Of a DNA stretch of 50,356 bases, positions 2,599 through 40,333 are shown one piece after another (the first letter of the stretch is position 1; each line of letters opens with the position of its first letter). Source of the DNA: Octopus sinensis. Taxonomy: Eukaryota. The position numbers and the translations under genes were made by a program. The notes under the pieces were generated by a model, which saw only the letters and a list, made by a program, of their open reading frames with translations, was not told the DNA's origin and did not search any database. The stretch spans positions 1 to 50,356 of the forward strand of contig NW_021835934.1 in NCBI RefSeq assembly GCF_006345805.1, read 5' to 3'.

Positions 2599-2744
2599 GC
2601 TTCGGCCCTTTACGCTCTGAGGTCATTTCTCACCTGAGCCAATTTCGTTTTTCATCCTTCCGGTGATCGATAAAATAAAGTGCATGTGTGTGTGTCTGTA
2701 TCTGTGTCTGTGTGTGTCTGTATCTGTGTCTGTGTGTACATTAG

Positions 2745-2910
2745 ATTCTCTTAAAAGTTATTAAGTATTTGACTATTTAAATATTGTTTCTTAGTAAACA
2801 GTATCCCACGAACCTTTTGAAAATAAGATTTCATATTGTGTGAACTGAGTGTAAGCGCTTTCCTTGTGTTGTCCCATTTTTCAAACAAACCAGTACTGAG
2901 CCAATCCGTA
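2745..2910 (-). repeat. Inverted copy of the Penelope-like 3' pseudo-LTR
   Basis: Reverse complement (ggattggctcag...ttgaaaa...gaaagcgcttacac...aatatgaaa...caaaaggttcgt) aligns by eye, with divergence, to 4978-5130 (ggattagcccag...ttgaaaa...gaaaacgcttacac...aatacgaaa...caaaaggctcgt). Confidence 0.65.
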
Positions 2911-2948
2911 TAGAGAAAGTTGTTTTTAGTAATGATGCTGACCGTTTC

Positions 2949-3213
2949 GGATCTTTTCACTTTGACCGGCAGATTTTTTAAATAATTTCTTTGTAACTAA
3001 ACAGTTTTAAACTTCGTATACTGGTAGTGTGCTACATAAAACATATTTTTCTCTTGACTTTCTCGAGAAAATTCTGTAGTTTGTAAGCTATTTGTTGTTT
3101 AATTTCTTGCATTTCGGCAATTTCAACCAATCAATGACGTCTATTGAGGTGAATACAATTTCTGCCGTAATTTGTCAATAACATTTTCTGACGGTGTCAA
3201 AGCGAAAAGATCC
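2949..3213. mobile_element. MITE (about 265 bp) with 18-bp terminal inverted repeats
   Basis: GGATCTTTTCACTTTGAC (2949-2966) and GTCAAAGCGAAAAGATCC (3196-3213) are 17/18 complementary. No clear TSD. Confidence 0.75.
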
Positions 3214-3214
3214 A

Positions 3215-5130
3215 TAGTTTCTGGTTTACTTTCGGATTTAGAATTCTTAGAATGGTCTTAGAACAACTAAATAACCAACAATTCCACAAAAAGATATAAA
3301 GCAATGCAAATAAGCAAACACTGAACAAAGTTGGTGAATTTACAGACAGATTAAAAAATGGCTTAACGAAAAAGACGTTGAATTATCTCACAAATTTGGA
3401 GGTGAAAGAAGTAGCTTTTACAAACTACAATGCTAAGAAATTAATAACTGCTTAAAGGATCTCCATATACCATATATGGAAATTCTTTAAGCATCTGATT
3501 TAAAAGTACGTCTAATTGTTGCACGCCTAACATCTAGCAGTCAACGATTAAGTAATTTTTCCTGACAGGATTTTGAAACTAATGTGCAAATTGGTCCCGT
3601 GTTTCATCAGAGACGGCATGGACTTCTTAAATCATGATCCCGGAAGAGTTGATAAGAGACGATTATGGTTGCTTTCGATCCAACCAGTCTCTACACAAAT
3701 ATCCCTCATGGATTAGGATTAGCAGAGCTGTGGATAGTCAAATACGCACGAAAGTTCAGGAAAATTGCCCTCAAGATTTATACTTGAAATATTACCTGAA
3801 GGATTGATACTAGAGAACAACCACTTCTTTGATGCGTAAGATTACATACAAATTCAAAGCACAGCGATGGGAACGGAAGTCGCACCAACATTTGCAATAC
3901 TAGTAATGGGATTCCTAGAAGAAAAGTGAATACGTTATCTGGAATTACATTTAATCAACATTTCCAATCTTGTTTAACAGGAAATTGGAAATGATTCTTA
4001 GATAAAAGATACCTTTATCTTTTACAAGATAATTTAAATTAACAAATAGCCTTCATGAATCGATCCCTTTCACTATGAAAATGAATGAAAAGGATGTTCC
4101 ATACTGGTCATTCTGATAATTAAAGAAACTGAGGTAGTTATAATCGATCTCTGCTGCAAAGACACAGACACACTCAAATACTTAGATTTTAAATATTGAC
4201 ACTCGTGTCACGCAAAAAGAACACCAAATTAACATGGAAAGACATATATACTCAGTATATATAGACTTAAAAAGAAGAGAGAAAATACTGGTAGAAGCTA
4301 ATATGTAGAAGCCCAAAATTTAACAAATCATGGCAAATCTTTGACTTACAGGAAAAAATTCACGTTGAGGGTGAAACCAAAAGTAGAAATATAAATACTC
4401 CATTGGTAGTCACACATAATCGAAGAAATCACAAAATCTTACATTCAGCCAAAACAAATAATGAGAGTCACAAATTATCGACAGCCGAAGACAACCACCA
4501 AATTTCATAAGAATCTTAACAGAAGCGAGATTCATTTCGGAGAAAGAAATAATGCAGGTGACAACACGTGGAACCTTTCTTTGTGGAACGTGTGAAATAA
4601 CTAATCGTGGAACAACCAAAACATTCGAGAATGAGAAGTAACTGAAGGTGAATGCAAACATCTTTGTGTTCACCTTCAAAACAAGAGAAGACTTATCTAC
4701 TGCATCACATCCCCACAATGCAAAGAGAATTACATTGGAGGAACAGGATCAAAGCTGACCAGCCGTGTGAGAGTGGACGAACAGAAAATCAATAATTATC
4801 TCTTAGAAATGTAGTGAACATCTAAACATTTGTGATAATGGAAAATTCAAAATATTTCCTTTATTTCATAAATAACAAAATGATCGGCTATGCACGGCAA
4901 AAGCAGAATGCTTATTAAAATTCTAAACCCCAAATTAAACCGGAAAGTCACCGTCATTACTAAAAACAACGTCTATGTGGATTAGCCCAGAACATATGTG
5001 ATTGAAAAGATGAACAACGAAAACGCTTACACACAAAATGCGCTCAATACGAAACTTTCTTTCCAAAAGGCTCGTCGCATTTTATTTTTTTAAAAATATT
5101 TTTAAAATATTTAATGAATTTTAAGAAAAT
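3215..5130 (+). mobile_element. Degenerate Penelope-like retroelement (RT plus GIY-YIG endonuclease pseudogene, 3' pseudo-LTR)
   Basis: Manual translation gives FDPTSLYTNIPHGLGL (about 3674), YIQIQSTAMGTEVAPTFAILVMGFLEEK (about 3843), WK*FLD (decayed catalytic motif, about 3986), KDTDTLKYLDF (about 4158) and LIYCITSPQCKENYIGGTGSKLTSRVR (about 4692, GIY-YIG). Many stops and frameshifts. Confidence 0.9.
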
Positions 5131-5459
5131 CTTTCTTTGACTATCATGTCTGTATCGAGTATTTTTGGCTAAAACCTTTTACATATATCACTCACACTCC
5201 GTTTTTTAATAAAACTTTTGTTACTTTGCTGGAGCTCATGCTTTTGCATTGAATAATTGCTGATTTCTGTTAGCGAGAAACCTTAGGTTCCAGACATGTA
5301 TAATACTGGAAAAAAATAACTTTTTACCTACCTTTTCGATGTTTACAGCCCATTCTCCCGGACTTTACAAGCTTGTATATATATATGTGTGTGTCTGTGT
5401 GTGTGTATGTGCGCGCGCGTGTCTGTGTGTGTACGTGCGTGTGTGTGTAGTGATAATAA

Positions 5460-13176: not shown

Positions 13177-13850
13177 TAATTGTTATCGCCATATTAATAT
13201 GGCAATCTTATAGATATAAGACTAAAAGCTTAAAAGACGAAACGCGTCTGTAGCTGTCTGACTAGCAGTGTGAAGCAGCTGACCTCCCTTGTTCGAAGGT
13301 TCTAATAGACACAGTTTGTGTGTCATATAGCTATCTTAAGGCGATAGCCTCATGGAGCTAATCAGCAACAGCTTTTAGTCTTATATCTATAAGATTGCCA
13401 TATTAATATGGCGATAACAATTAATTTCCAGTAACGCTGTCGTAATCTCTTTTAGAGAGACTTAGTAATTTTAATATTTCTATTATTGAAAACAAGTGGA
13501 TGTATTCCACCGATAATAGGTAAATAGAACCTTCGAACAGAGACGATCAGTGACGACACCTGCTGAGTCGACTACGCTACATTGACAAGGGGCAAATACC
13601 CTGAAACGCGTCTGTAGCTGTCTGACTAGCAGTGTGAAGCGGCTGACCTCCCTTGTTCGAAGGTTCTAATGGACACAGTTTGTGTGTCATATAGCTATCT
13701 TAAGGCGATGGCCTCATGGAGCTAATCAGCGACAGGATTTAGTCTTATATCTATAAGATTGCCATATTAATATGGCGATAACAATTAATTTCCAGTAACG
13801 CTGTCGTAATCTCTTTTAGAGAGACTTAGTAATTTTAATATTTCTATTAT
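13175..13850 (+). mobile_element. Retrozyme-like non-autonomous Penelope-type element: 364-nt tandem unit (1.7 copies) with an inverted 5' segment, inserted in (TA)n
   Basis: 13239-13486 is repeated at 13603-13850 (period 364, six substitutions). 13175-13230 is the reverse complement of 13370-13425. An HHR spans the unit junction. Confidence 0.85.
13576..13618 (+). ncRNA. Minimal type I hammerhead ribozyme with a U3-A8 core variant
   Basis: Stem I GCTACA/TGTAGC, core TTGACAA, stem II GGGG-caaata-CCCT, GAAA, palindromic stem III CGCG, predicted cleavage after GUC (13612). Confidence 0.8.
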
Positions 13851-13894: not shown

Positions 13895-14140
13895 TATACG
13901 ACAGAAGCCTGTCGTATACTTATATACATATATGTAAGTGTCTTTCTGCCTGTGTCTGTCTCCCACTGTCGCTTGAATACGGTGTTGGTGTTTTTACGTC
14001 CCTGTAACTTGGTGATTTGACGCTAGAGACCGATAGAAGAAGTACCGGGCTTAAAAAGAATAATTACTGGTGTCTACTAAAATTCTTCAAGGATGTGCTC
14101 AAGCATGGCCGCAGTCTAATGACTGAAACAAGTAAAAGAG
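13895..14140 (+). mobile_element. SINE-B 3' half, diverged
   Basis: GAAGCCTGTCGTAT...GACCGATAGAAGAAGTAC...GCATGGCCGCAGTCTAATGACTGAAACAAGTAAAAGAG. Confidence 0.85.
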
Positions 14141-15040
14141 ATCAAATAAGAGATAATTAATGAATTTTGCTGCATCTTTAGAGAATCATTATGGCTATAA
14201 TAAATGCATGCACTGGTTCTATTTCCCTTCATTTATTGTTAAGACCTCAATTAGTTAACATTTAGCCAATTAGCTAATCGATTACTTGATTAATCGTTCG
14301 GTCAACCAATGAACCAGCTTGGTTTGTCAAAGTGCTTTGGTCGCCATTTGCGATTACATCAATGATACGACTCCTTCAGATCTGATTCAGTTCTGTCTGT
14401 CTGTCTGTCAAACTCTGTTTCAACGCAGGAGTTTACGTTGTGAATCTCACAGACCAAAAACAAAAGAGAAAATATTTACTAAATCGATTCTTTTGGATCA
14501 ACGGAAACCTCTGTCTAAGCTACAAAGGAACAAGAAGAACTCCGAAAGAAGAAATAACGTGTAGCAGCGCCCTGTAAGAAATTCTGTTCACAGGAACAAA
14601 CAATTTATACTCTAAAGAGAAAAGGAGTGATTCAACATGGAGAATGCAAAAAATAAATGAAGTCGTATAAACCGTTTTATGTAAATACAAAAAAAATGTC
14701 ATTCTAGAAACAAAAGAAAAGCTAAGACAAATTATATCAACCAAAGTATTAAAGGGAAAATACTGCCAAAAATGTCAGTGTTTCCCCCAGGAGAACAAGG
14801 TATATGAATTAAATACCAAAATGTTATACACAGAGTTTTAACAAAAGATATGCAATGATGGAGGATAGAGCAACAGCAACTAAGGCCAAATATACTAGGA
14901 GTGGGGGAATATGGGGGAAAACACATTCAACATAATAAAAATAGTTCAACTGACCAAAAGGGAAAAGGATATACGTATACATGCACACACACACACACAT
15001 ATATATATATACGTCACACACCATTTATATATACATACTC

Positions 15041-15124
<84 letters not shown>

Positions 15125-15125
<1 letters not shown>

Positions 15126-15460
15126 GATGGTATTATTAAAATCCATCACAAGTAGTAAGCGAATTATCAGCCATACAGGCAAATTAATAAAATATATACA
15201 TACAATATTAGATATGTACATATATACACAAGGGTAGTACATGAGTACCTATATCACTAATGATAGAAGTAAAAAGTACTTCTGTACCACCGAAAAGTCA
15301 CAAATCTATTACACACAAGATAGGAAAAAATATCAGTGAATAATAACAATGTCTTACCTCAAATGGGTCAGAACAAGTAAATGCTGGTCAACCTGGTACT
15401 GGTTTCGAAATTTAGCGCCAAATAGGCACGTGATTTCTCATAAGCCAAAGTCTGCCAGCT
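15125..15460 (-). mobile_element. Insertion of about 335 bp in (TA)n carrying a degenerate HHR (family 3)
   Basis: Absent from the inverted partner copy. HHR-like motif at 15394-15447. Confidence 0.6.
15394..15447 (-). ncRNA. Degenerate minimal HHR (G5 mutated)
   Basis: TGG-CTTATGA-GAAAT..GTGCC-tattt-GGCGC..ATTTC-GAAA-CCAG-TA-CCA on the minus strand. Confidence 0.55.
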
Positions 15461-15490
15461 ATATATATATATTTTATATAATATATATGT

Positions 15491-15549
<59 letters not shown>

Positions 15550-15662
15550 TGTGTATACATGTATGCAAATTAGGGGCTCCTTCGTAGAGTAACTGCTGCA
15601 TTTGTTGAGTATATAAACAATTTGGCTGCTTGTTTCTCTGGAGTCTGTCGGAATGATGTGGA

Positions 15663-15707
15663 AGCCTCTGATGAGAACCCAATAAGGTTCGGAAATTGAT
15701 TAAGGCT
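15663..15707 (+). ncRNA. Minimal type I HHR with A13>G (probably inactive)
   Basis: AGCCT-CTGATGA-GAACC-caataa-GGTTC-GGAA-ATTGAT-TA-AGGCT. Confidence 0.75.
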
Positions 15708-15774
15708 GTTCATTTGTTTTTCAGTCTGCGGAGAAATGACTAAAACTTTTCCATGTTTATAATTATGCAATATA

Positions 15775-15842
15775 TTACACACACACAGGCGCGCGCGCAC
15801 AACACACACACACACATACATACATATATAATATATGTATAG

Positions 15843-15876
<34 letters not shown>

Positions 15877-15979
15877 GTATATGTATATGTATGTATATAT
15901 ATGCAATATATAAGAGGAATAACCACCAAGGTGGATTCCTAATATGTTAGAAGAAGACGCTAAATCGTCTTACCACTAT

Positions 15980-16065
<86 letters not shown>

Positions 16066-16090
16066 ACTCTTACATGCATACATACATAAA
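15775..16090. repeat. (CA)/(TA)/(TATG) microsatellites
   Basis: Seen directly. Confidence 0.85.
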
Positions 16091-16957
16091 ATATGTGTAT
16101 AAAATATGTGTACAATCATGTAACACGTTTGTGTATCCGCGGACGTGAGAAGAAGTCACGGGAGAAAATAATCTCACATGTGTTTCTAGGTCATTGTGAG
16201 TCGTCATCTTTGAATACCGAATTCGTTTCCACATCCCCGTAAGGAAAATAGATTCTATATCTAAGTGCAGGAGATAGTACGTTTACTGGCGGGCGTAAAG
16301 TTTGAAGAAGCTGGAATCAAATAACTTCAGAGCTACATGAAGCAGCGTGAAATAAAATATGACATTGGATAAAATATATCGTTGACCTATGTGTTTGTCT
16401 ATGAAGAGAATTGTCCCCCTGCACTGTTTCTGCAGCGAAAGGTTACGATACATAAATAACAAAGATAGTATTCATTTCTTCCGAGGAAACTCTCGGTTAT
16501 GAACCCAGCATGCTTCAACTGTTTCACTCTGCGCAATGAGTGATTAAGGAAATATATAATGAATTATTTTTTATATGGTCTGTTCTGGTCTACATTACTT
16601 CAATTATCCATTACTACATTACCCATTAGACGTTATTTCTTTCTTTATTATTTATTTATTTCTATGCATTGAACTGCTTCAAATATACGAAATCTAATAA
16701 CGACACAATACATATTGCAACGCTACGATGTTAATTCACTTATTGAAAGGCGACACTTTACTCTACCGATACTCTGAGAAAAACATTTGACAAACCGCAT
16801 GCGTAGATCTATGCAATCCAATTTTTTTTTTGTGTGAGTCTCGCTTCATGTAGTATTTTCGGATCAGCCAAAAGCAGATCAATTCTATAAATGTTTCCCC
16901 ATAAAAACTATTATACAAGATTAATTAATAGCTTATATATATATATTACAAGCGAAG

Positions 16958-17561
16958 AAAGGCGGTGAGCTGGCAGAAACGTTAGCACGCCGGGCGAAAT
17001 GTTTAGCAGTATTTCGCCCGTCGCTACGTTCTGAGTTCAAATTCCGCCGAGGTCGACGTTGCCTTTCATCCTTTCGGGGTCGATTAAATAAGTACCAGTT
17101 ACGCACTGGGGTCGATATAAGTGACTTAATCCGTTTGTCTGTCCTTGTTTGTCCCATCTGTGTTTAGCTCCTTGTGGGTAATAAAGAAATCGGTATTTCG
17201 TCTGCCGTTACGTTTTGAGTTCAAATTCCGCCGAGGTCGACTTTGCCTTTCATCCTTTCGGGGTCGATAAATTAAGTACCAGTTACGCACTGGGATCGAT
17301 ATAATCGACTTAATCCGCGTGTCTGTCCTTGTTTGTCCCATCTGTGTTTAGCCCCTTGTGGGTAATAAAGAAATCGGTATTTCGTCTGCCGTTACGTTCT
17401 GAGTTCAAATTCCGCCGAGGTTGACTTTGCCTTTCATCCTTTCGGCGTCGATATATAAAGTACCAATTTCCCACTGGGGTCGATATAATCGACTTAATCC
17501 GTGTGTCTGTCCTTGTTTGCCCCCCCACCTCTGTGTTTAGCCCCTTGTGGGCAATAAAGAA
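16958..17561 (+). mobile_element. SINE-A trimer (one head plus three 184-nt bodies) with a 19-bp TSD
   Basis: Units restart at 17191 and 17375. ATATATATTACAAGCGAAG occurs at 16939-16957 and 17562-17580. Confidence 0.92.
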
Positions 17562-18013
17562 ATATATATTACAAGCGAAGTTGAAACGGTGACGGAAAGG
17601 GTTGTATAACTATAAAGAACAGCGACTGGTGAATCGGACGATTACAGAAGATACGAGAAGCAGGAAACCAGATGCTGTAGCATGACCTGGATTGATAGAC
17701 TCCATAAAATAGTGCTGTCCCAATAGTAATAGCAATCCCAATATTAACAACAGCACTAATACTGATAGCTGCCCTAGTACTAACACCAGTTCTAATTCTA
17801 ACAACAGCCCTAATATTAACACCAGCCACGTTTTTATCGAAGTACGGTAATCAAATTATGCTAAAATGGCAAACAACGTTGCTAAAAGGCAAAGAGGAGA
17901 TAATTAAACTAATTTTCTGTCTAACCTCGACTCCAGCAATTCATCAGCAATCTTCTCTATTCTTTTACTTGTTATAGTAATTTGAACTGCGGTCATGCTG
18001 GAGCACGGCCTTG

Positions 18014-18100
18014 AAAAAATAGGGAACGCTTCACGAATTTGGGTGTCATCCTGCGCAGGGGCCATACTAATTTTCTCTGTGTCATTCCAAATTTAGAGTA
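18014..18100 (-). pseudogene. U6: 5'-truncated U6 snRNA pseudogene
   Basis: Reverse complement TTGGAATGACACAGAGAAAATTAGTATGGCCCCTGCGCAGGATGACACCCAAATTCGTGAAGCGTTCCCTATTTTTT matches canonical U6 (ACAGAGA box, ISL, 3' oligo-U) with several substitutions and no 5' stem. Confidence 0.92.
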
Positions 18101-18226
18101 GAAGCACGTGGCTTAATGGTTAGGGTGTTCAAAGTAAATGTCACAGATTTTGTGTGTTCTTAAAATCAGAACGAGATGAATGAAGGTGGCGATCTGAACA
18201 ATGGCGATTTGGTGCTGCTGACTGGA

Positions 18227-18665
18227 GAAACGGAACCAATTATCTCATGGAAAAGCAGGAGAATATTAGACGTTAGAATATGGAAAAGTTTTAGCCATTT
18301 CTCCGCAGACTGAAAAAATTATGAATAACCTTAATCAATTTTCGAACCTTATTTGGTTCTCATCAGAGGCGTCTACATCATTCTGACAATCTCCGGAGAA
18401 ACAATCAGCCAAACTGCTTATATACTCAACAAATGCCGCAGTTACTCTACGAAGGAGTCCCTAATTTGCATACATGTATACACACACACACACCACACAC
18501 ACACACACACGTATATAACATATATATTATATAGAATATATATATATTTATTCGTGTATGTATATATAAATGGTGTGTGTACGTATATATATATGTGCGT
18601 ATGTGTATGTGTGTATACCTATATCCTTTCCCTTTTGGTCAGTTGAACTATTATGATTTTGTTTT
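18227..18665 (-). mobile_element. HHR-bearing non-coding element (family 2), right arm of the inverted pair
   Basis: Reverse-complement homologue of 14930-15757. Its end (18227-18282) is also present inverted at 19046-19102. Confidence 0.75.
18328..18370 (-). ncRNA. Minimal type I HHR with an intact canonical core
   Basis: GCCT-CTGATGA-GAACC-aaataa-GGTTC-GAAA-ATTGAT-TA-AGGT. Stem III is a near-palindrome of ATCGAT. Confidence 0.82.
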
Positions 18666-18782
18666 GGCTACAGTATTTTTCGTTACCGGAAACAAGCAGA
18701 AACATGTACGCGAGTACACAGAAATATACTTATACAAAAAGTGAGAAAGAGAGAGAGATAGCTTCAGGAAAGAGAGAGAGAG

Positions 18783-18825
<43 letters not shown>

Positions 18826-19209
18826 TTACAATTTATTTATTGAAGGGGGTTGATATAAACACTGTTCTCTCTCCACATAGACATCAAAAAAAATATATGC
18901 TCACACACATAAACAGAGTAAGAGAGAAAGGAAGAAAGAGAAGGAGAGGGGGGGAAGAGAACGAGAAAATAGTTAGAAACGTTTGATATAAAATAAGTTA
19001 GATTCGAACCAGCGACGCCAAACAGTTGAGATCCAAACGGTTAAGCCATATTCTAACGTCTCATATTCTCCTGCTTTTCCATGAGAGAATTGGTTTCGTT
19101 TCAACGCGTGATCTCAGGCGAAATCCCTTGCAAAACAAGTACAAATCCGCAAGTGGGTCTTGCATAAGTAAATTTCCTTCTACGACTCATGTAGACCTAT
19201 GAGTCTACA

Positions 19210-19335
19210 AGAGCCGGTTTCACGGTTTCCATGGCCATTCCGCCGCAGGATTGCTCATTTTTGCCAGCTGAGGGAACTGATGCAACGTGGAATGAAGTAT
19301 CTTACTCAAGAACACATCGCGTAGACCTGTCTAGG
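19210..19335 (-). mobile_element. SINE-D fragment, diverged
   Basis: ccggtttc...ctcatttttgccagctga...gcaacgtggaatgaagt...ctcaagaacac matches 30467-30718. Confidence 0.7.
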
Positions 19336-19612
19336 ACTCAATAAATTTCTAAGACGGGGGTAAATAAAACAATATTGCTGCAATGCCGCCCCCTGTTTAT
19401 TTATCTGGTGAATTTATCTGGTAAAATATGGAAGGTCTCTTTTCAATATAATTACTCGATACTCCCTGAATCTTTCTTCAATATTTCAAACTGTCTCTGC
19501 TATTGTAGTTTCACAGAGTTAGCATATGATCCACCTGGGTATCTAATGCTGTATATTATAGTTGTTTTGTAGTGTGCACTTGATATGTAGCAGGCCTCAG
19601 GGATTCTCACTT

Positions 19613-19697
<85 letters not shown>

Positions 19698-19699
19698 TA

Positions 19700-20368
19700 T
19701 ATAATAAAAGAATGAAAAAATCTCACAGTCTATATAAATGTTTTAATATACTTTTGTAAGTGAAAGGGTATTGTGTTTGTCGACCGGTTTCGCTTTCGCT
19801 AACCATGACTCTGAAATTATTGTAATTTTGTACTTTCTTAAGAAGATTTTAGTCCACGTTCTGTATGGAAATTTGTGAATAAATCAACAAGTAGAAAACT
19901 CTAAGGAGAGATAATTGGTGATCGTCATTACTCAGGACATGGGAGTTCATTGTTCTAGGTGGGTGGGTGGTGGGATAATTAAATATACAAAACCTCAAAA
20001 GCTAAGGTAGTAAGATGAAATATGTACCGTGATGGGTATATGATCACGAATTAAAATATATACTGAGACCAAAGTTGGTTATGCGTTCATATTTAGGCGT
20101 GATCTGTATTTTTCGATAAATAAATTTTCTTTATTTATACATTCTTGTACAGAAATTGTTTCTTTGCACTGGTAGATGTGGAAAACTGTGAAGTTTGATT
20201 GGATATTACCCGCACAACTCTCTATATGTTCACTCAAAGGAATCTGTCTGTACTTTGGGAAACGGATTTGTTCCTTATCTAGTGAGGGTCTCCGTCTAAG
20301 TGTCATATTTGTCTGTCCTGTGTAGTTATGTTCATAACCTGAAATTGTTATAACATAAATTAGATTTT
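19700..20368 (-). mobile_element. Penelope-like 3' fragment (GIY-YIG C-terminus plus pseudo-LTR)
   Basis: The minus frame reads NLIYVITISGYEHNYTGQTNMTLRRR...LSEHIESC...FHIYQC...KENLFIEKYRSRLN* (20368-20079), followed by an untranslated region containing GAAACCGGTC. Confidence 0.8.
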
Positions 20369-23794: not shown

Positions 23795-27808
<4,014 letters not shown>

Positions 27809-30718: not shown

Positions 30719-30923
30719 CGATAAATCTACTGAGTATTTAATGCTTAATTGCGACGGGATGCCTGCAACACCAGAGTGCGGAAGCTGATGGCTCCAGCTG
30801 GCCAAACTGTGTTGTTTCTAAATTTTGGCATAGAAGAAAGGAAGAAGGAATGGAATTACAAAATCTCAGAGAAATCTCAGAGATACATACTGTAGCAGTA
30901 TAGTATTTTAAAAGCTTATAATC

Positions 30924-31523
30924 TATTTCTTTACTACCCACAAGGGGCTAAACACAGAGTGGACAAACAAGGACAGACAAACGGATTAAGTTGATTATAT
31001 CGACCCCAGTGCGTAAGTGGTACTTATTTAATCGACCCCGAAAGGATGAATGGTAAAGTCGACCTCGGCGGAATTTGAACTCAGAACGTAGCGACAGACG
31101 AAATACCTATTTCTTTACTACCCACAAGGGGCTAAACACAGAGAGGACAAACAAGGACAGACAAACGGATTAAGTTGATTATATCGACCCCAGTGCGTAA
31201 GTGGTACTTATTTAATCGACCCCGAAAGGATGAATGGTAAAGTCGACCTCGGCGGAATTTGAACTCAGAACGTAGCGACAGACGAAATACCTATTTCTTT
31301 ACTACCCACAAGGGGCTAAACACAGGGAGGACAAACAAGGACAGACAAACGGATTAAGTTGATTATATCGACCCCAGTGCGTAACTGGTACTTATTTAAT
31401 CGACCCCGAAAGGATGAAAGGTAAAGTCGACCTCGGCGGAATTTGAACTCAGAACGTAGCGACAGACGAAATACTGTTGAGCATTTCGCCCGTCGTGCTA
31501 ACGTTTCGGCCAGCTCGCCAGCC
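30924..31523 (-). mobile_element. SINE-A trimer
   Basis: Units at 30924, 31108 and 31292 (period 184). TATAATCTA flanks both ends (30917-30925 and 31524-31532). Confidence 0.93.
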
Positions 31524-32174
31524 TATAATCTAATTAGGTTCTTCCAAAGCGACTCATAAACTTAACCAAAATTTGTCTCATTGTGGCACGTTTTAGTATT
31601 AAGGATTAAGTGATAACAAAGGGTTTATAACGAATCCAGAGAAGACTCCAGCAATCAGCACTACTAAACTCACAAAACTTGCATATTGACCGATATGTGA
31701 GAAACACCACCACTTCGTCCGAAAGTAAAAAATCTCTTATAGGCGTGCTGTGACTAAAATACGTGTGACTTGCCTGTCGGCAGAGTATATGAATCAAGTA
31801 TGATACATAGATAGCTATTTTAATTTTATACTCTTTGAATTGCATACACCGAGTTGTTTATTCAGCGTAGCGGCTGTTCGCAGTGTCAGTGAATATATTA
31901 TTCACAGCTTTCCATATTGGAGGCGAGAAAATCTCGCCCAAGCATACTTATTGACAATGGCCAATAAAGTGGGAATTGCATCTGGCGTTCTTGTTATCCC
32001 AGCTGCTGGGACAGTTTTATCGCCCCTCTCCGATATATATTGTGTTTTTTAAACAAAGCACCTCCGAAGGAAATTTATCTTCCACGAAAACCGAGGTAGC
32101 TTGCCTGTCTTTAAATATGATACAGGAATGCCAATATATACATGCATACATACATACATACATACATACATACA

Positions 32175-33470: not shown

Positions 33471-34533
33471 CCCTTTCGTTACTATATTTCTGACCAAAAT
33501 ACACCCCTTATGTGTTTCAATTAATTTCTAACGTAATCATAAATTTAGTCTGGTTTCATTAAACACTATAACTTTTTTATTTATGAATATATTAATCTGA
33601 TTTTTGGAAGATAATTTAGTGAAATGTTCTCAACCAATTCTATACTATAATTTTTGTCACAAAGTGACTCTAATTGCAGGTAGATACAGGTAAATTCAAC
33701 AATATATAAAATTATTAAAATTTTGTTCAACATCGCTATAGAAAATGGGTTATTAGCTAATATTCAATTGGGTATACAACAGAATTTTACGATAGAATTT
33801 GTTATTCTGGGTAACTTTCTAATACCCATAATAATATTTATGGCAAAATAGGCCTTAATTTCATTTAAGATTGTGGGAAATAACAAACTATCGTTTCTTT
33901 CGCTTTGTTTAGGTTGGGCGTAACAGTTCGTTTCCGCCGTAATGATTTCAAATAGGCTCATTCGAAAAAGTAAAAAGAAATAGTCTAAGGCTTTACTCTT
34001 CTGGGAAAGTCTGTGGCTTGGTCCAGTTTCTTCAGAGAAATCACCGAAAGAAACAGTTTTTAAATTTTCACTCCATTCAGGTGCCAAATCATTTTCTTTA
34101 TCGCTGTCGGAGATCTCAGATTCACTGTTTTCACTTTCGGAAAATGAAACATCAGATTCATTATCAAATACCACATGCTTTTTTTTTCAGTCATAGAGTT
34201 AGATTTATGAAGGTTTTCAGTAGAAAATCCTTCGAATTCTGACTCGCTGCTTGATATAATGAAATTCGTATCCATTTTTTGTCAGAATTACAAATTTTGA
34301 AAACACAATAGGAACAAATTTCGGAAAAAAATCTCCCATAATTCACGGAATTAAAATTACACTTCGATTTTTGTACGAAACTGTAGTTGAACTGTTTACG
34401 AAGTATAATACGTGTTTTCACGAATGTTCTAAAGAGATTTACTCTGATATTCTCATTTAAATATGAATAGGTAATTCGGGCGGCTTGGTCACATTAACCA
34501 AAATTTTTTTCGGGCGTTTTGGTAACGAAAGGG
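33471..34533 (-). mobile_element. Internally deleted piggyBac transposon
   Basis: TTAA TSD (33467-33470 and 34534-34537). TIR CCCTTTCGTTAC / GTAACGAAAGGG. Confidence 0.93.
33764..34275 (-). pseudogene. piggyBac (PGBD4-like) transposase N-terminal fragment, frameshifted and truncated
   Basis: MDTNFIISSSESEFEGF... acidic N-terminus, then LDYFFLLF...IITAETNCYAQ...EIKAYFAINIIMGIRKLP. The catalytic DDD domain is missing. Confidence 0.88.
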
Positions 34534-39339: not shown

Positions 39340-39621
39340 ATGTTTAAATTTTTTTTTTAAATTGCAGTTAGCGGAAACCTGCAGGAATATATGCGCTATG
39401 TACAGAGAGGATGCTGCTACGGGGCGTACCAGAAGAGTTTTTCAAGAAAACGTAAATCTCGCCAAATAACCACATGTTCAATGGTAAATTACTGCGCCCT
39501 GTGGGACTTACTTTATAATTAAAATATATTGAGCCGTTGAGAGTTGTCAGGTCAGGGATACAACACAGCGCCGATAATTGCAGTGTGACTGATCTATTTT
39601 TCTGTTGATGCATCGTTATCC

Positions 39622-40236
39622 CAGAGTGATTTCATCATCCATACTCTCAACAATACGCTCCTAAATATGATTTCTGATTACAAATATCTTGACTCATACA
39701 TATCATCATCTGAAAAAGATTTTCTAACTAGAAAGGGTATGGCCTGGTCAGCCTGTAATGATATGCATAAGATCTGTTCATCAAATCTAAAGTAGAGATT
39801 TCAAACTTAAAATCTTCAAAGCCGCAGTCGAACCAATTCTACTAAATGGCTCAGAAACCTGGACGTTATCAAAGAAGCTTGAGAGGCGGTTGGATGGAAC
39901 CTATACTCGCCTCCTTATGAGAGCTCAAAATCTCTCGTGGAAGCGTCATCCAACCAAAGTACAAATATATGGGAAATTACCACCTGTATCATCTCTTGTG
40001 AAAGGTAGAAGAGTCCAGTTTGCTGGACATTGTTGTAGAGCTGAAAAGAGGTAATTTCTACTCTTCTCCTCTGGAAGCCATCTGCTCGTGATACCAGAGG
40101 GCGAACACTCTCCTACCCTGATGTAATCTCCAAGGATACAGGCATCCAGCAACGGGACCTCCGTAATGCTATGATGGACCGTGAAGTCTGGCGTAAAATA
40201 GTAAATTCCATTGTCTCGACCACGGTCGAACAATGA
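39622..40236 (+). mobile_element. 5'-truncated RTE-type LINE with a 16-bp TSD
   Basis: YKYL*SYISSSEKDFLTRKGMAWSACNDMHKI...FKAAVEPILLNGSETWTLSKKLERRLDGTYTRLLMRAQNLSWK...RRVQFAGHCCR...AMMDREVWR, then a (TGA)n tail. TGATGCATCGTTATCC occurs at 39606-39621 and 40237-40252. Confidence 0.9.
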
Positions 40237-40333
40237 TGATGCATCGTTATCCTATCCGGGTAGGAAACGTCTTAACCTCACTGTTTTGGCGTCGCTGATT
40301 CGACGCTGACTTATTTGACATTAGACGTTTTAA

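Follow-up and report, generated by a model that had tools for sequence, protein, structure and literature searches.

Type I hammerhead motifs on an inverted element pair in Octopus sinensis, probably a single retroelement insertion and its local duplicate

We analysed a 50,356-nt stretch of Octopus sinensis DNA (contig NW_021835934.1, positions 1 to 50,356; the window), in which two homologous segments lie on opposite strands. Positions 14929-15754(+) align to 18663-18280(-) with about 90% identity if the 336-bp insertion of the plus copy is left out. The blocks matched by BLAST and local alignment are 14929-15056(+)/18663-18537(-) and 15460-15757(+)/18547-18277(-). The copies are oriented tail-to-tail (3' to 3') and the gap between them measures 2519 bp, in agreement with the inverted arrangement about 2.5 kb apart described in a sequence-only reading of this DNA. 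The same reading took 14930-15757(+) and 18280-18665(-) to be homologous including their microsatellites. This stands, but not over the whole length, i.e., 15124-15459 (336 bp) and some extra (AT)n length have no counterpart in the minus copy.

Within the plus copy, we distinguish a shared 5' flank (14929-15056(+), delimited by alignment), which consists of 45 bp of A-rich unique DNA and an interrupted microsatellite, from a hammerhead-bearing, pseudo-LTR-like element at 15555-15775(+), whose putative boundaries follow from its microsatellite flanks and from homology up to 15754. The entire minus copy, i.e., flank, microsatellites and element, covers about 385 bp (18280-18663(-), by alignment); the plus copy runs about 20 bp further at its 3' side. 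The copies differ at 19 of 197 positions in the non-repetitive core (15558-15754), while the 5' part with the interrupted microsatellites shows 109 matches, 10 mismatches and 5 gap columns. That is, flank and core are equally diverged (10/119 vs 19/197), and the 45-bp piece is identical at 41/45 positions. Its A content (0.56) is similar to that of the unshared sequence preceding the plus copy (0.45). Region 14470-14970, which runs into these 45 bp, resembles what we take to be an unrelated R4/Dong LINE remnant; three protein searches of the region found no support for R4/Dong. The plus copy is bordered by (TG)n and (CA)n, a weak sign given that microsatellites are frequent in the window. Microsatellites were present on both sides in 5/6 such relics inspected, with the 3' end of the minus copy as the exception.

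Both copies carry a type I hammerhead with a helix I of 4-5 bp, a helix II of 5 bp and a self-complementary 8-nt helix III. Helices I and II border the core, helix I is open, and both are present in the predicted folds. The motif reads GCCT-CTGATGA-GAACC-loop-GGTTC-G(A/G)AA-ATTGAT-TA-AGG, exactly as noted earlier, and the descriptor search confirms an intact core in the minus copy and A13>G in the plus copy. In the plus motif (15663-15707(+); helix I 5 bp, helix II 5 bp), C3 is at 15668, A13G at 15692 and N17 at 15702, with the predicted cut after 15702. In the minus motif (18328-18370(-); helix I 4 bp, helix II 5 bp), C3 is at 18366 and N17 at 18332, with the predicted cut between 18332 and 18331; here, the conserved core (C3-A9, G12-A14, A15.1-U16.1, non-G at 17) is intact throughout. 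The G10.1-C11.1 pair is found in both copies. A13 is needed for hammerhead activity; a literature search on the effect of A13G returned nothing relevant.

A strict descriptor matches once in the window and in none of 60 block-wise dinucleotide shuffles. A looser one (at most one core change, G10.1-C11.1 pair required) gives 3 matches, i.e., both copies and a third motif, while 0/200 shuffles contain any match; a fourth loose match at 39712(-) is removed once the G-C pair is required. Since the descriptor was fixed after the motif was seen, these shuffle controls are optimistic. Among the 139 Rfam matches with E<=1 in the whole window none is a hammerhead, and for 18280-18470 alone the type III model Hammerhead_3 reaches 12.5 bits (cut-off 48.5, E 6.1). 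Rfam recognition is not part of the definition of a type I hammerhead.

The third hammerhead-like motif, overlooked by the earlier reading, is carried by the later insertion within the (AT)n of the plus copy (15124-15459(-); C3 15444, N17 15397). It shows one core change, G5U, and is unrelated to the studied pair. Upstream of the plus-copy hammerhead lie motifs at 15563 and 15610 (15563-15616(+); minus equivalents 18471 and 18424), which we take to be octamer-like and TATA-like; they might conceivably act as a promoter. Downstream follow a splice-acceptor-like run and an ATG (15717-15738(+); minus equivalents 18318 and 18298), for which a role can only be conjectured.

With regard to folding, all 8/8 helix III positions pair between two copies, while the active monomer fold has a predicted probability of about 4e-5. 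The modelling thus supports a helix III that is stable only between two molecules. By free energy, a misfolded alternative (-21.0 kcal/mol) outranks the predicted dimer (-17.8), and the local fold of the bare motif reaches z-scores of only about -1. Each motif is embedded in an imperfect hairpin of about 100 nt that extends helix I: for 15634-15734(+) the z-score is -2.60 (2/200 shuffles as stable) and for 18300-18400(-) it is -3.86 (0/200), the latter being equalled by 4/560 GC-matched windows (top 1% locally). The near-palindromic stem III had been read as a hint at dimeric cleavage. The intermolecular stability of helix III agrees with this, but the inverted pair offers no partner on one transcript: as the copies lie on opposite strands, no cis dimer can arise from it.

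Relics of Penelope-like elements (PLEs) are present nearby. A decayed RT+GIY-YIG PLE occupies 3249-4946 and matches an oyster protein at E 4.4e-41; another GIY-YIG relic lies at 20085-20366(-) (E down to 2.8e-12). The suggested linkage of the pair to an RT/GIY-YIG ORF was not borne out, i.e., tblastn and HMM searches of 14000-19400 found no PLE protein (best E 0.16) with a query of 8 proteins from one related group, which other PLE clades could escape. Pfam reported nothing above cut-off in 30 frames of 14150-19630; this blank carries little weight because Pfam also missed both confirmed PLE relics. Two candidate parents were rejected. The relic at 20085-20366(-) shares the strand of the minus copy and lies 1.4 kb upstream of it, but has a 3' region that ends in (TA)n at 19703 without similarity to the element, and the 3' region of the PLE at 3.2-4.9 kb is not detectably related to it. 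Nor did the window hold the tandem copies looked for: the element occurs twice, on opposite strands (a SINE gives up to 17 matches there), the motif falls in none of 129 tandem-repeat rows, and no terminally redundant unit was found. Bacterial and archaeal genome contigs gave 0 matches, which is uninformative for an animal repeat.

We compared the pair with known hammerhead-bearing elements. It shares the core, type I topology, G10.1-C11.1 pair and 4-5 bp helix I with the metazoan PLE hammerheads of Cervera and de la Pena 2014 (PMC4209133), and likewise a palindromic helix III dependent on dimerisation. These pseudo-LTR hammerheads are mostly solitary truncated copies, and pairs on opposite strands 100-700 bp apart have already been noted (PMC4209133). 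The pseudo-LTR consensus has an extra nucleotide, whereas both copies here show an insertion length of 0. PLEs are described as arranged in a partial tandem, or with an inverted 5'-truncated copy adjoining the 5' end, in contrast to the 3' to 3' copies 2519 bp apart found here. The reported bias of PLE insertion towards microsatellites is matched by the (TG)n and (CA)n flanks of the plus copy. Metazoan non-LTR retrozymes (PMC7229834; bioRxiv 10.64898/2026.07.22.740005) are likewise non-coding and type I, with a 2-bp helix III and a tetraloop, and the shared unit of about 385 bp falls within the size range of mussel retrozyme units (350-390 bp); unlike these, which form tandem units that each carry a type I hammerhead and are expressed as circular RNA, the pair is not in tandem. 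An active retrozyme is defined by two same-strand motifs (bioRxiv 10.64898/2026.07.22.740005), which are absent here.

The window holds a further repeat at 13.18-13.84 kb, which is likewise short, (TA)n-flanked and equipped with a hammerhead-like half. It shows no sequence similarity to the pair (local scores of 16-18, matched by 246 and 299 of 300 shuffles), as had been stated before. This repeat has the published PLE layout, i.e., a partial tandem, an adjacent inverted 48-bp 5' piece and a one-end extension, which the studied pair does not show. Of the proposal that the pair represents a second PLE pseudo-LTR or retrozyme family, a second, unrelated type I hammerhead of that kind is thus retained, but not the family membership: because the two copies are probably one element and its local duplicate, a family is without independent evidence. 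To judge from its sequence, the motif is real but an ordinary, presumably self-cutting RNA motif left by a retroelement of a kind common in animals.

The minus copy is bracketed by a 57-bp inverted duplication with arms at 18227-18283(+) and 19046-19102(-) (54/57 identical). At 18280-18283, the left arm and the minus copy overlap in a 4-nt microhomology, which places this end of the minus copy at a rearrangement junction. Microhomologies at the junctions amount to 4 nt and 3 nt (chance 0.005 and 0.02, post hoc). PMC7584159 describes inverted duplications at inversion ends that arise via staggered breaks or template switching. As in those inversions, a short inverted duplicate brackets a segment with junction microhomology; the segment here differs in being only 0.8 kb long, and its inversion is putative. 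The arms are unlikely to be terminal inverted repeats of a DNA transposon, since no target duplication is seen and the left arm sits within a frame that starts upstream of it and weakly matches DUF5641 (E 0.024, below cut-off).

We consider it probable that one terminal piece of a retroelement inserted once and was then copied locally in inverted orientation. A piece of about 220 bp from a hammerhead-carrying retroelement, most likely a PLE pseudo-LTR or a non-autonomous derivative, would have inserted into the microsatellite at 15555. The hammerhead, if working, would act as a dimer: in a parent transcript with tandem copies, the 8-nt helix III segment of one copy would pair with that of another on the same strand, and cleavage would free the element RNA. 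A local rearrangement would later have placed an inverted copy of the piece, including some 190 bp of its 5' flank, at 18280-18663, either as part of a small inversion or along with one; the 57-bp inverted duplication would be what this inversion left. Afterwards, the plus copy would have received the third element, and both copies would have decayed. The hammerhead architecture and the PLE relics nearby speak for the PLE origin, and the equal divergence of flank and core, the presence of only 2 copies in 50 kb and the bracketing duplication for local copying. Against the reading as a whole, the shared unit has the size of a mussel retrozyme, as would suit a single unit inserted twice, a linked PLE ORF is missing, and the misfolded form is more stable than the predicted dimer.

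Two independent insertions of a non-autonomous unit of about 385 bp, i.e., a retrozyme monomer or long pseudo-LTR that includes the microsatellites and the 45-bp piece, with the inversion merely flipping one of them, are unlikely but deserve serious consideration. Such a unit would match mollusc retrozymes in length and, with its 2-bp helix III, tetraloop and lack of an extra nucleotide, canonical invertebrate type I hammerheads. Its 5' end lies about 300 bp from the hammerhead, near the stop-to-motif distance in two PLE relics (by eye), retrozyme monomers occur dispersed, and PLEs are said to insert near existing copies (PMC6765202). However, no tandem or terminally redundant unit exists, the only 2 copies in the window lie 2.5 kb apart, the 45 bp are A-rich like the unshared upstream DNA, and a minus-copy end falls on the rearrangement junction. 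RNA-mediated copying is improbable. Here, a PLE protein would have begun reverse transcription at an internal site of a read-through transcript from the plus locus, and the product, with 5' flank attached, would have integrated at a distance of 2.5 kb, while two-strand GIY-YIG cutting made the 57-bp inverted duplication. Purified PLE protein does cleave the two strands and begin reverse transcription at internal sites; this accounts for 'tails' at one end only (PMC11167929). The additional 20 bp of the plus copy and the 8/11 transitions that are A/G on the element strand fit as well, but this A/G excess lacks significance (p=0.23) and is seen in either direction; an A-to-I editing footprint is likewise not significant. 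Furthermore, the 3' end of the minus copy is outside a microsatellite, and microhomology at both junctions as well as the inverted 0.8-kb neighbour would be accounted for by DNA repair or template switching, with no reverse transcriptase involved. It is equally doubtful that the minus copy is a PLE integration footprint, i.e., a re-inserted read-through cDNA with 5' flank, internal start, 57-bp inverted target duplication and inverted 0.8-kb neighbour. If true, flank transduction and micro-inversion would be direct effects of PLEs in a genome rich in them, and the minus ribozyme with its intact core would represent, as a recent member, a cephalopod family not yet catalogued.

It is very improbable that the host has kept the intact minus ribozyme, or the inverted pair as long dsRNA and editing substrate, by selection as a regulatory unit. 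The intact minus core, the long duplex that the copies can form (-306.9 kcal/mol) and the locally exceptional hairpin would suit this idea. Yet the hammerhead shows no extra conservation (3/43 differences vs 16/154 in the flanks, Fisher p=0.77), compensatory changes are found in 0/24 pairs, where only two sequences could be compared for covariation, and a rather insensitive scan recognised no host exon among 136 stop-free frames; selection on the ribozyme is not seen. A read-through transcript could possibly form the proposed long dsRNA, but this is not special to the pair, because the window holds 15 inverted pairs of at least 100 bp and at least 80% identity within 6 kb of each other, the studied one included. 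Most far-fetched is a chance match within an arbitrary duplicated repeat: the missing significant Rfam match and the unremarkable z-scores of the bare motif would be expected, but not the shuffle result, nor a core, helices, G-C closing pair, palindromic helix III and cleavage triplet that are all in register.

Such hammerhead motifs number in the thousands in animal genomes, and PLEs are reported to make up 6.83% of the O. vulgaris genome. Our search, which did not extend to subscription papers and repeat libraries, found no paper on octopus or cephalopod hammerheads of this type, and the element sequence may be uncatalogued. Under the favoured single insertion with local copying, the pair at this locus is most likely inert. 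As it stands, the locus matters little by itself; it is a small record of nested PLE-like insertions, and it illustrates that a local rearrangement would be able to mimic an inverted pair of elements.

We compared the two copies that the sequence-only reading had described as homologous, internal microsatellites included, and as an inverted pair about 2.5 kb apart. The alignments agree on both points: 14929-15056(+) matches 18663-18537(-) and 15460-15757(+) matches 18547-18277(-), and the copies, on opposite strands, point their 3' ends at each other, with 2519 bp in between that hold SINEs, U6 and other DNA. The alignment of the 5' part, which spans interrupted microsatellites, shows 109 matches and 10 mismatches, and the non-repetitive core (15558-15754) of the inferred ~220-bp hammerhead-bearing element differs at 19/197 positions. 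Scanning the window in tiles, we found no third copy of the element.

Both copies carry the hammerhead motif as originally written, i.e., the core, a helix II of 5 bp with G10.1-C11.1 as closing pair, an 8-nt region for helix III and an A at position 17; helix I has 5 bp (plus copy) or 4 bp (minus copy), and the A13G change of the plus copy lies at 15692. A strict descriptor of core and helices, defined after the motif had been seen, matches once in the window vs. 0 in 60 shuffles; allowing ≤1 core change yields 3 matches vs. 0 in 200 shuffles. Rfam does not score the motif of the pair as a hammerhead. It represents a genuine relic of a type I hammerhead, of known kind and unrelated to the separate 13.2-kb family as had been stated, and its sequence is probably uncatalogued in the searchable literature, including the available parts of PMC6765202 and PMC6155905.

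The plus copy additionally contains 15124-15459 within its (AT)n, which has no other match within the window. Since the minus copy lacks it, this insertion probably arrived after the duplication. It holds a third hammerhead-like motif (15449-15392 (-), C3 at 15444) with one core change, a long and interrupted helix II and a helix III self-pairing at 4/6 positions, which is unrelated to both the pair's family and the 13.2-kb family. A donor-like site follows downstream at 15359.

A local rearrangement, i.e., a local copy, best explains the inverted pair, and four findings speak for it: flank and core are equally diverged; the minus copy's 3' end is the exception to the microsatellites found on both sides in 5/6 relics inspected; this copy is bracketed, with microhomology, by an inverted duplication of 57 bp (arms 18227-18283 and 19046-19102, 54/57 identical); and similarity to a repeat at 40.3 kb continues weakly past the inner edge of the right arm. 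The latter suggests that this edge is the original join. The minus copy's 3' end overlaps the left arm by 4 nt, and the other junction is compatible with an overlap of 3 nt (post hoc chance 0.005 and 0.02, respectively). Staggered breaks and template switching have been described as leaving footprints of this kind (PMC7584159). Arm and core divergence are indistinguishable (p=0.42), such that one event or two cannot be separated. PLE (Penelope-like element) inverted copies are described as adjoining the 5' end (PMC8557442, in part), a layout that we see both in the 3-kb relic and in the 13.2-kb repeat; the pair differs, being 3' to 3' and 2519 bp apart. Against a local copy we counted that mussel retrozymes have a unit size like the pair's ~385 bp, and that searches gave no support for an R4/Dong identity of the upstream flank.

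In this flank, an A-rich, decayed, ORF-like stretch (14440-14973 (+)) reaches into the shared part; it may resemble the N-terminal region of R4/Dong LINEs. A weak match to DUF5641, a domain linked to BEL/Pao retrotransposons, lies at 18164-18283 (+) (E 0.024, below cut-off). The 13.2-kb repeat (13183-13841) is laid out as published for PLEs: a partial tandem, a 48-bp inverted piece next to it, and ~60 bp that extend one end. Even with three core changes allowed, its hammerhead fails the descriptor.

More generally, the window is repeat-dense animal DNA with microsatellites, one U6 copy and several SINE-like families (≤17 matches each), which presumably resemble octopus SINEs. The full-length, diverged U6 snRNA copy (18015-18114 (-); 79.9 bits vs. 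cut-off 44) is joined to a SINE-like piece (17946-18015) and is probably a retrocopy. A 184-bp SINE-like unit is present as tandem trimers at 16957-17570 and 30921-31529, which run in opposite directions and share 90% identity over 609 bp, and a ~510-bp unit forms young tandem duplications at 24169-27808 (93-100% identical) with long (TATC)n arrays between. We also observe a DDE_Tnp_1_7 transposase fragment (33764-34186 (-), E 3.7e-6) and a frameshifted LINE C-terminus (39600-40240 (+)), RTE-like by eye and without Pfam match. No host exons were recognised in 136 stop-free frames, a weak scan given that it likewise missed a confirmed GIY-YIG relic.

We also studied predicted ribozyme action. 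Since the copies sit on opposite strands, one transcript holds one ribozyme and one antisense copy, and a cis dimer of the pair is impossible. The monomer has a helix III of 2 bp and a predicted active fold probability of ~4e-5. Between two molecules, 8/8 helix III positions pair (two as G-U) with a predicted -17.8 kcal/mol vs. -12.8 kcal/mol for two open monomers, but a misfolded dimer is predicted to be more stable (-21.0 kcal/mol) and the isolated helix III duplex reaches only -1.2 kcal/mol. Given these energies, the dimeric cleavage proposed from the near-palindromic stem III is plausible, though probably slow. Consistent with this, Cervera and de la Pena (PMC4209133) detected no activity of PLE motifs as monomers and low activity as dimers. 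In the work of Frangieh et al. (PMC11167929), a PLE hammerhead was active only in the presence of its protein, and insertion in vitro did not require the hammerhead. Li et al. (bioRxiv 10.64898/2026.07.22.740005) observed cleavage in 1/9 retrozyme dimers.

The hammerhead caps a 100-nt hairpin (z -3.86 minus copy, -2.60 plus copy), whose stability is reached by 4/560 and 2/560 GC-matched windows, respectively, with 360/920 background windows excluded for GC and test windows picked in best register. The order of the octamer-like, TATA-like, acceptor-like and ATG motifs around it would suit a pseudo-LTR. With 3/43 differences vs. 16/154 (p=0.77), the hammerhead is no more conserved than its surroundings, and covariation is found at 0/24 pairs from two sequences only. 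As for the proposed long dsRNA, read-through RNA could form a duplex of the two copies (predicted -306.9 kcal/mol), but this is not special to the locus: the window has 15 similar inverted pairs, counting the studied one and one self-overlapping match.

We further evaluated the affiliation. A decayed PLE with an RT and GIY-YIG frame lies at 3249-4946 (+) (8 matches among 1588 candidates, best E 4.4e-41); its match to an oyster protein is the one case in which a sequence of the window has a named protein relative, as would fit a mollusc. This PLE spans ~2736-5372, with part of its 3' region repeated inverted at 2780-2950. A second PLE relic (GIY-YIG, 20085-20366 (-)) has a 3' region extending to 19704 and is interrupted upstream by (TG)n; a decayed hammerhead-like half is seen by eye only near 19815-19780. 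Both were rejected as parent, as neither 3' region resembles the element of the pair. By our own boundaries, PLE-like relics make up 9.3% of the window (4685 bp), with only two protein-confirmed; for the O. vulgaris genome, the accessible part of PMC13282606 reports 6.83% PLEs.

The pair shares the core, the G-C pair and the palindrome with the published PLE consensus (PMC4209133 supplement file 2) but lacks the usual extra nucleotide after A9. Its 2-bp helix III is similar to that of invertebrate retrozyme motifs in the available part of PMC7229834. Linkage to an RT/GIY-YIG ORF, checked within the window, was not found: 14000-19400 shows no similarity to PLE proteins (best E 0.16), nor was a tandem arrangement of the element found. 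The sequence-only reading of a second PLE pseudo-LTR or retrozyme family is supported as regards an unrelated, PLE-like type I hammerhead, less so as regards a family. Without linked PLE protein or tandem, and with the PLE relics' 3' regions unlike it, we file the element by motif type: PLE or retrozyme membership is not established, and the pair carries a type I hammerhead that would work like the motif of a PLE pseudo-LTR.
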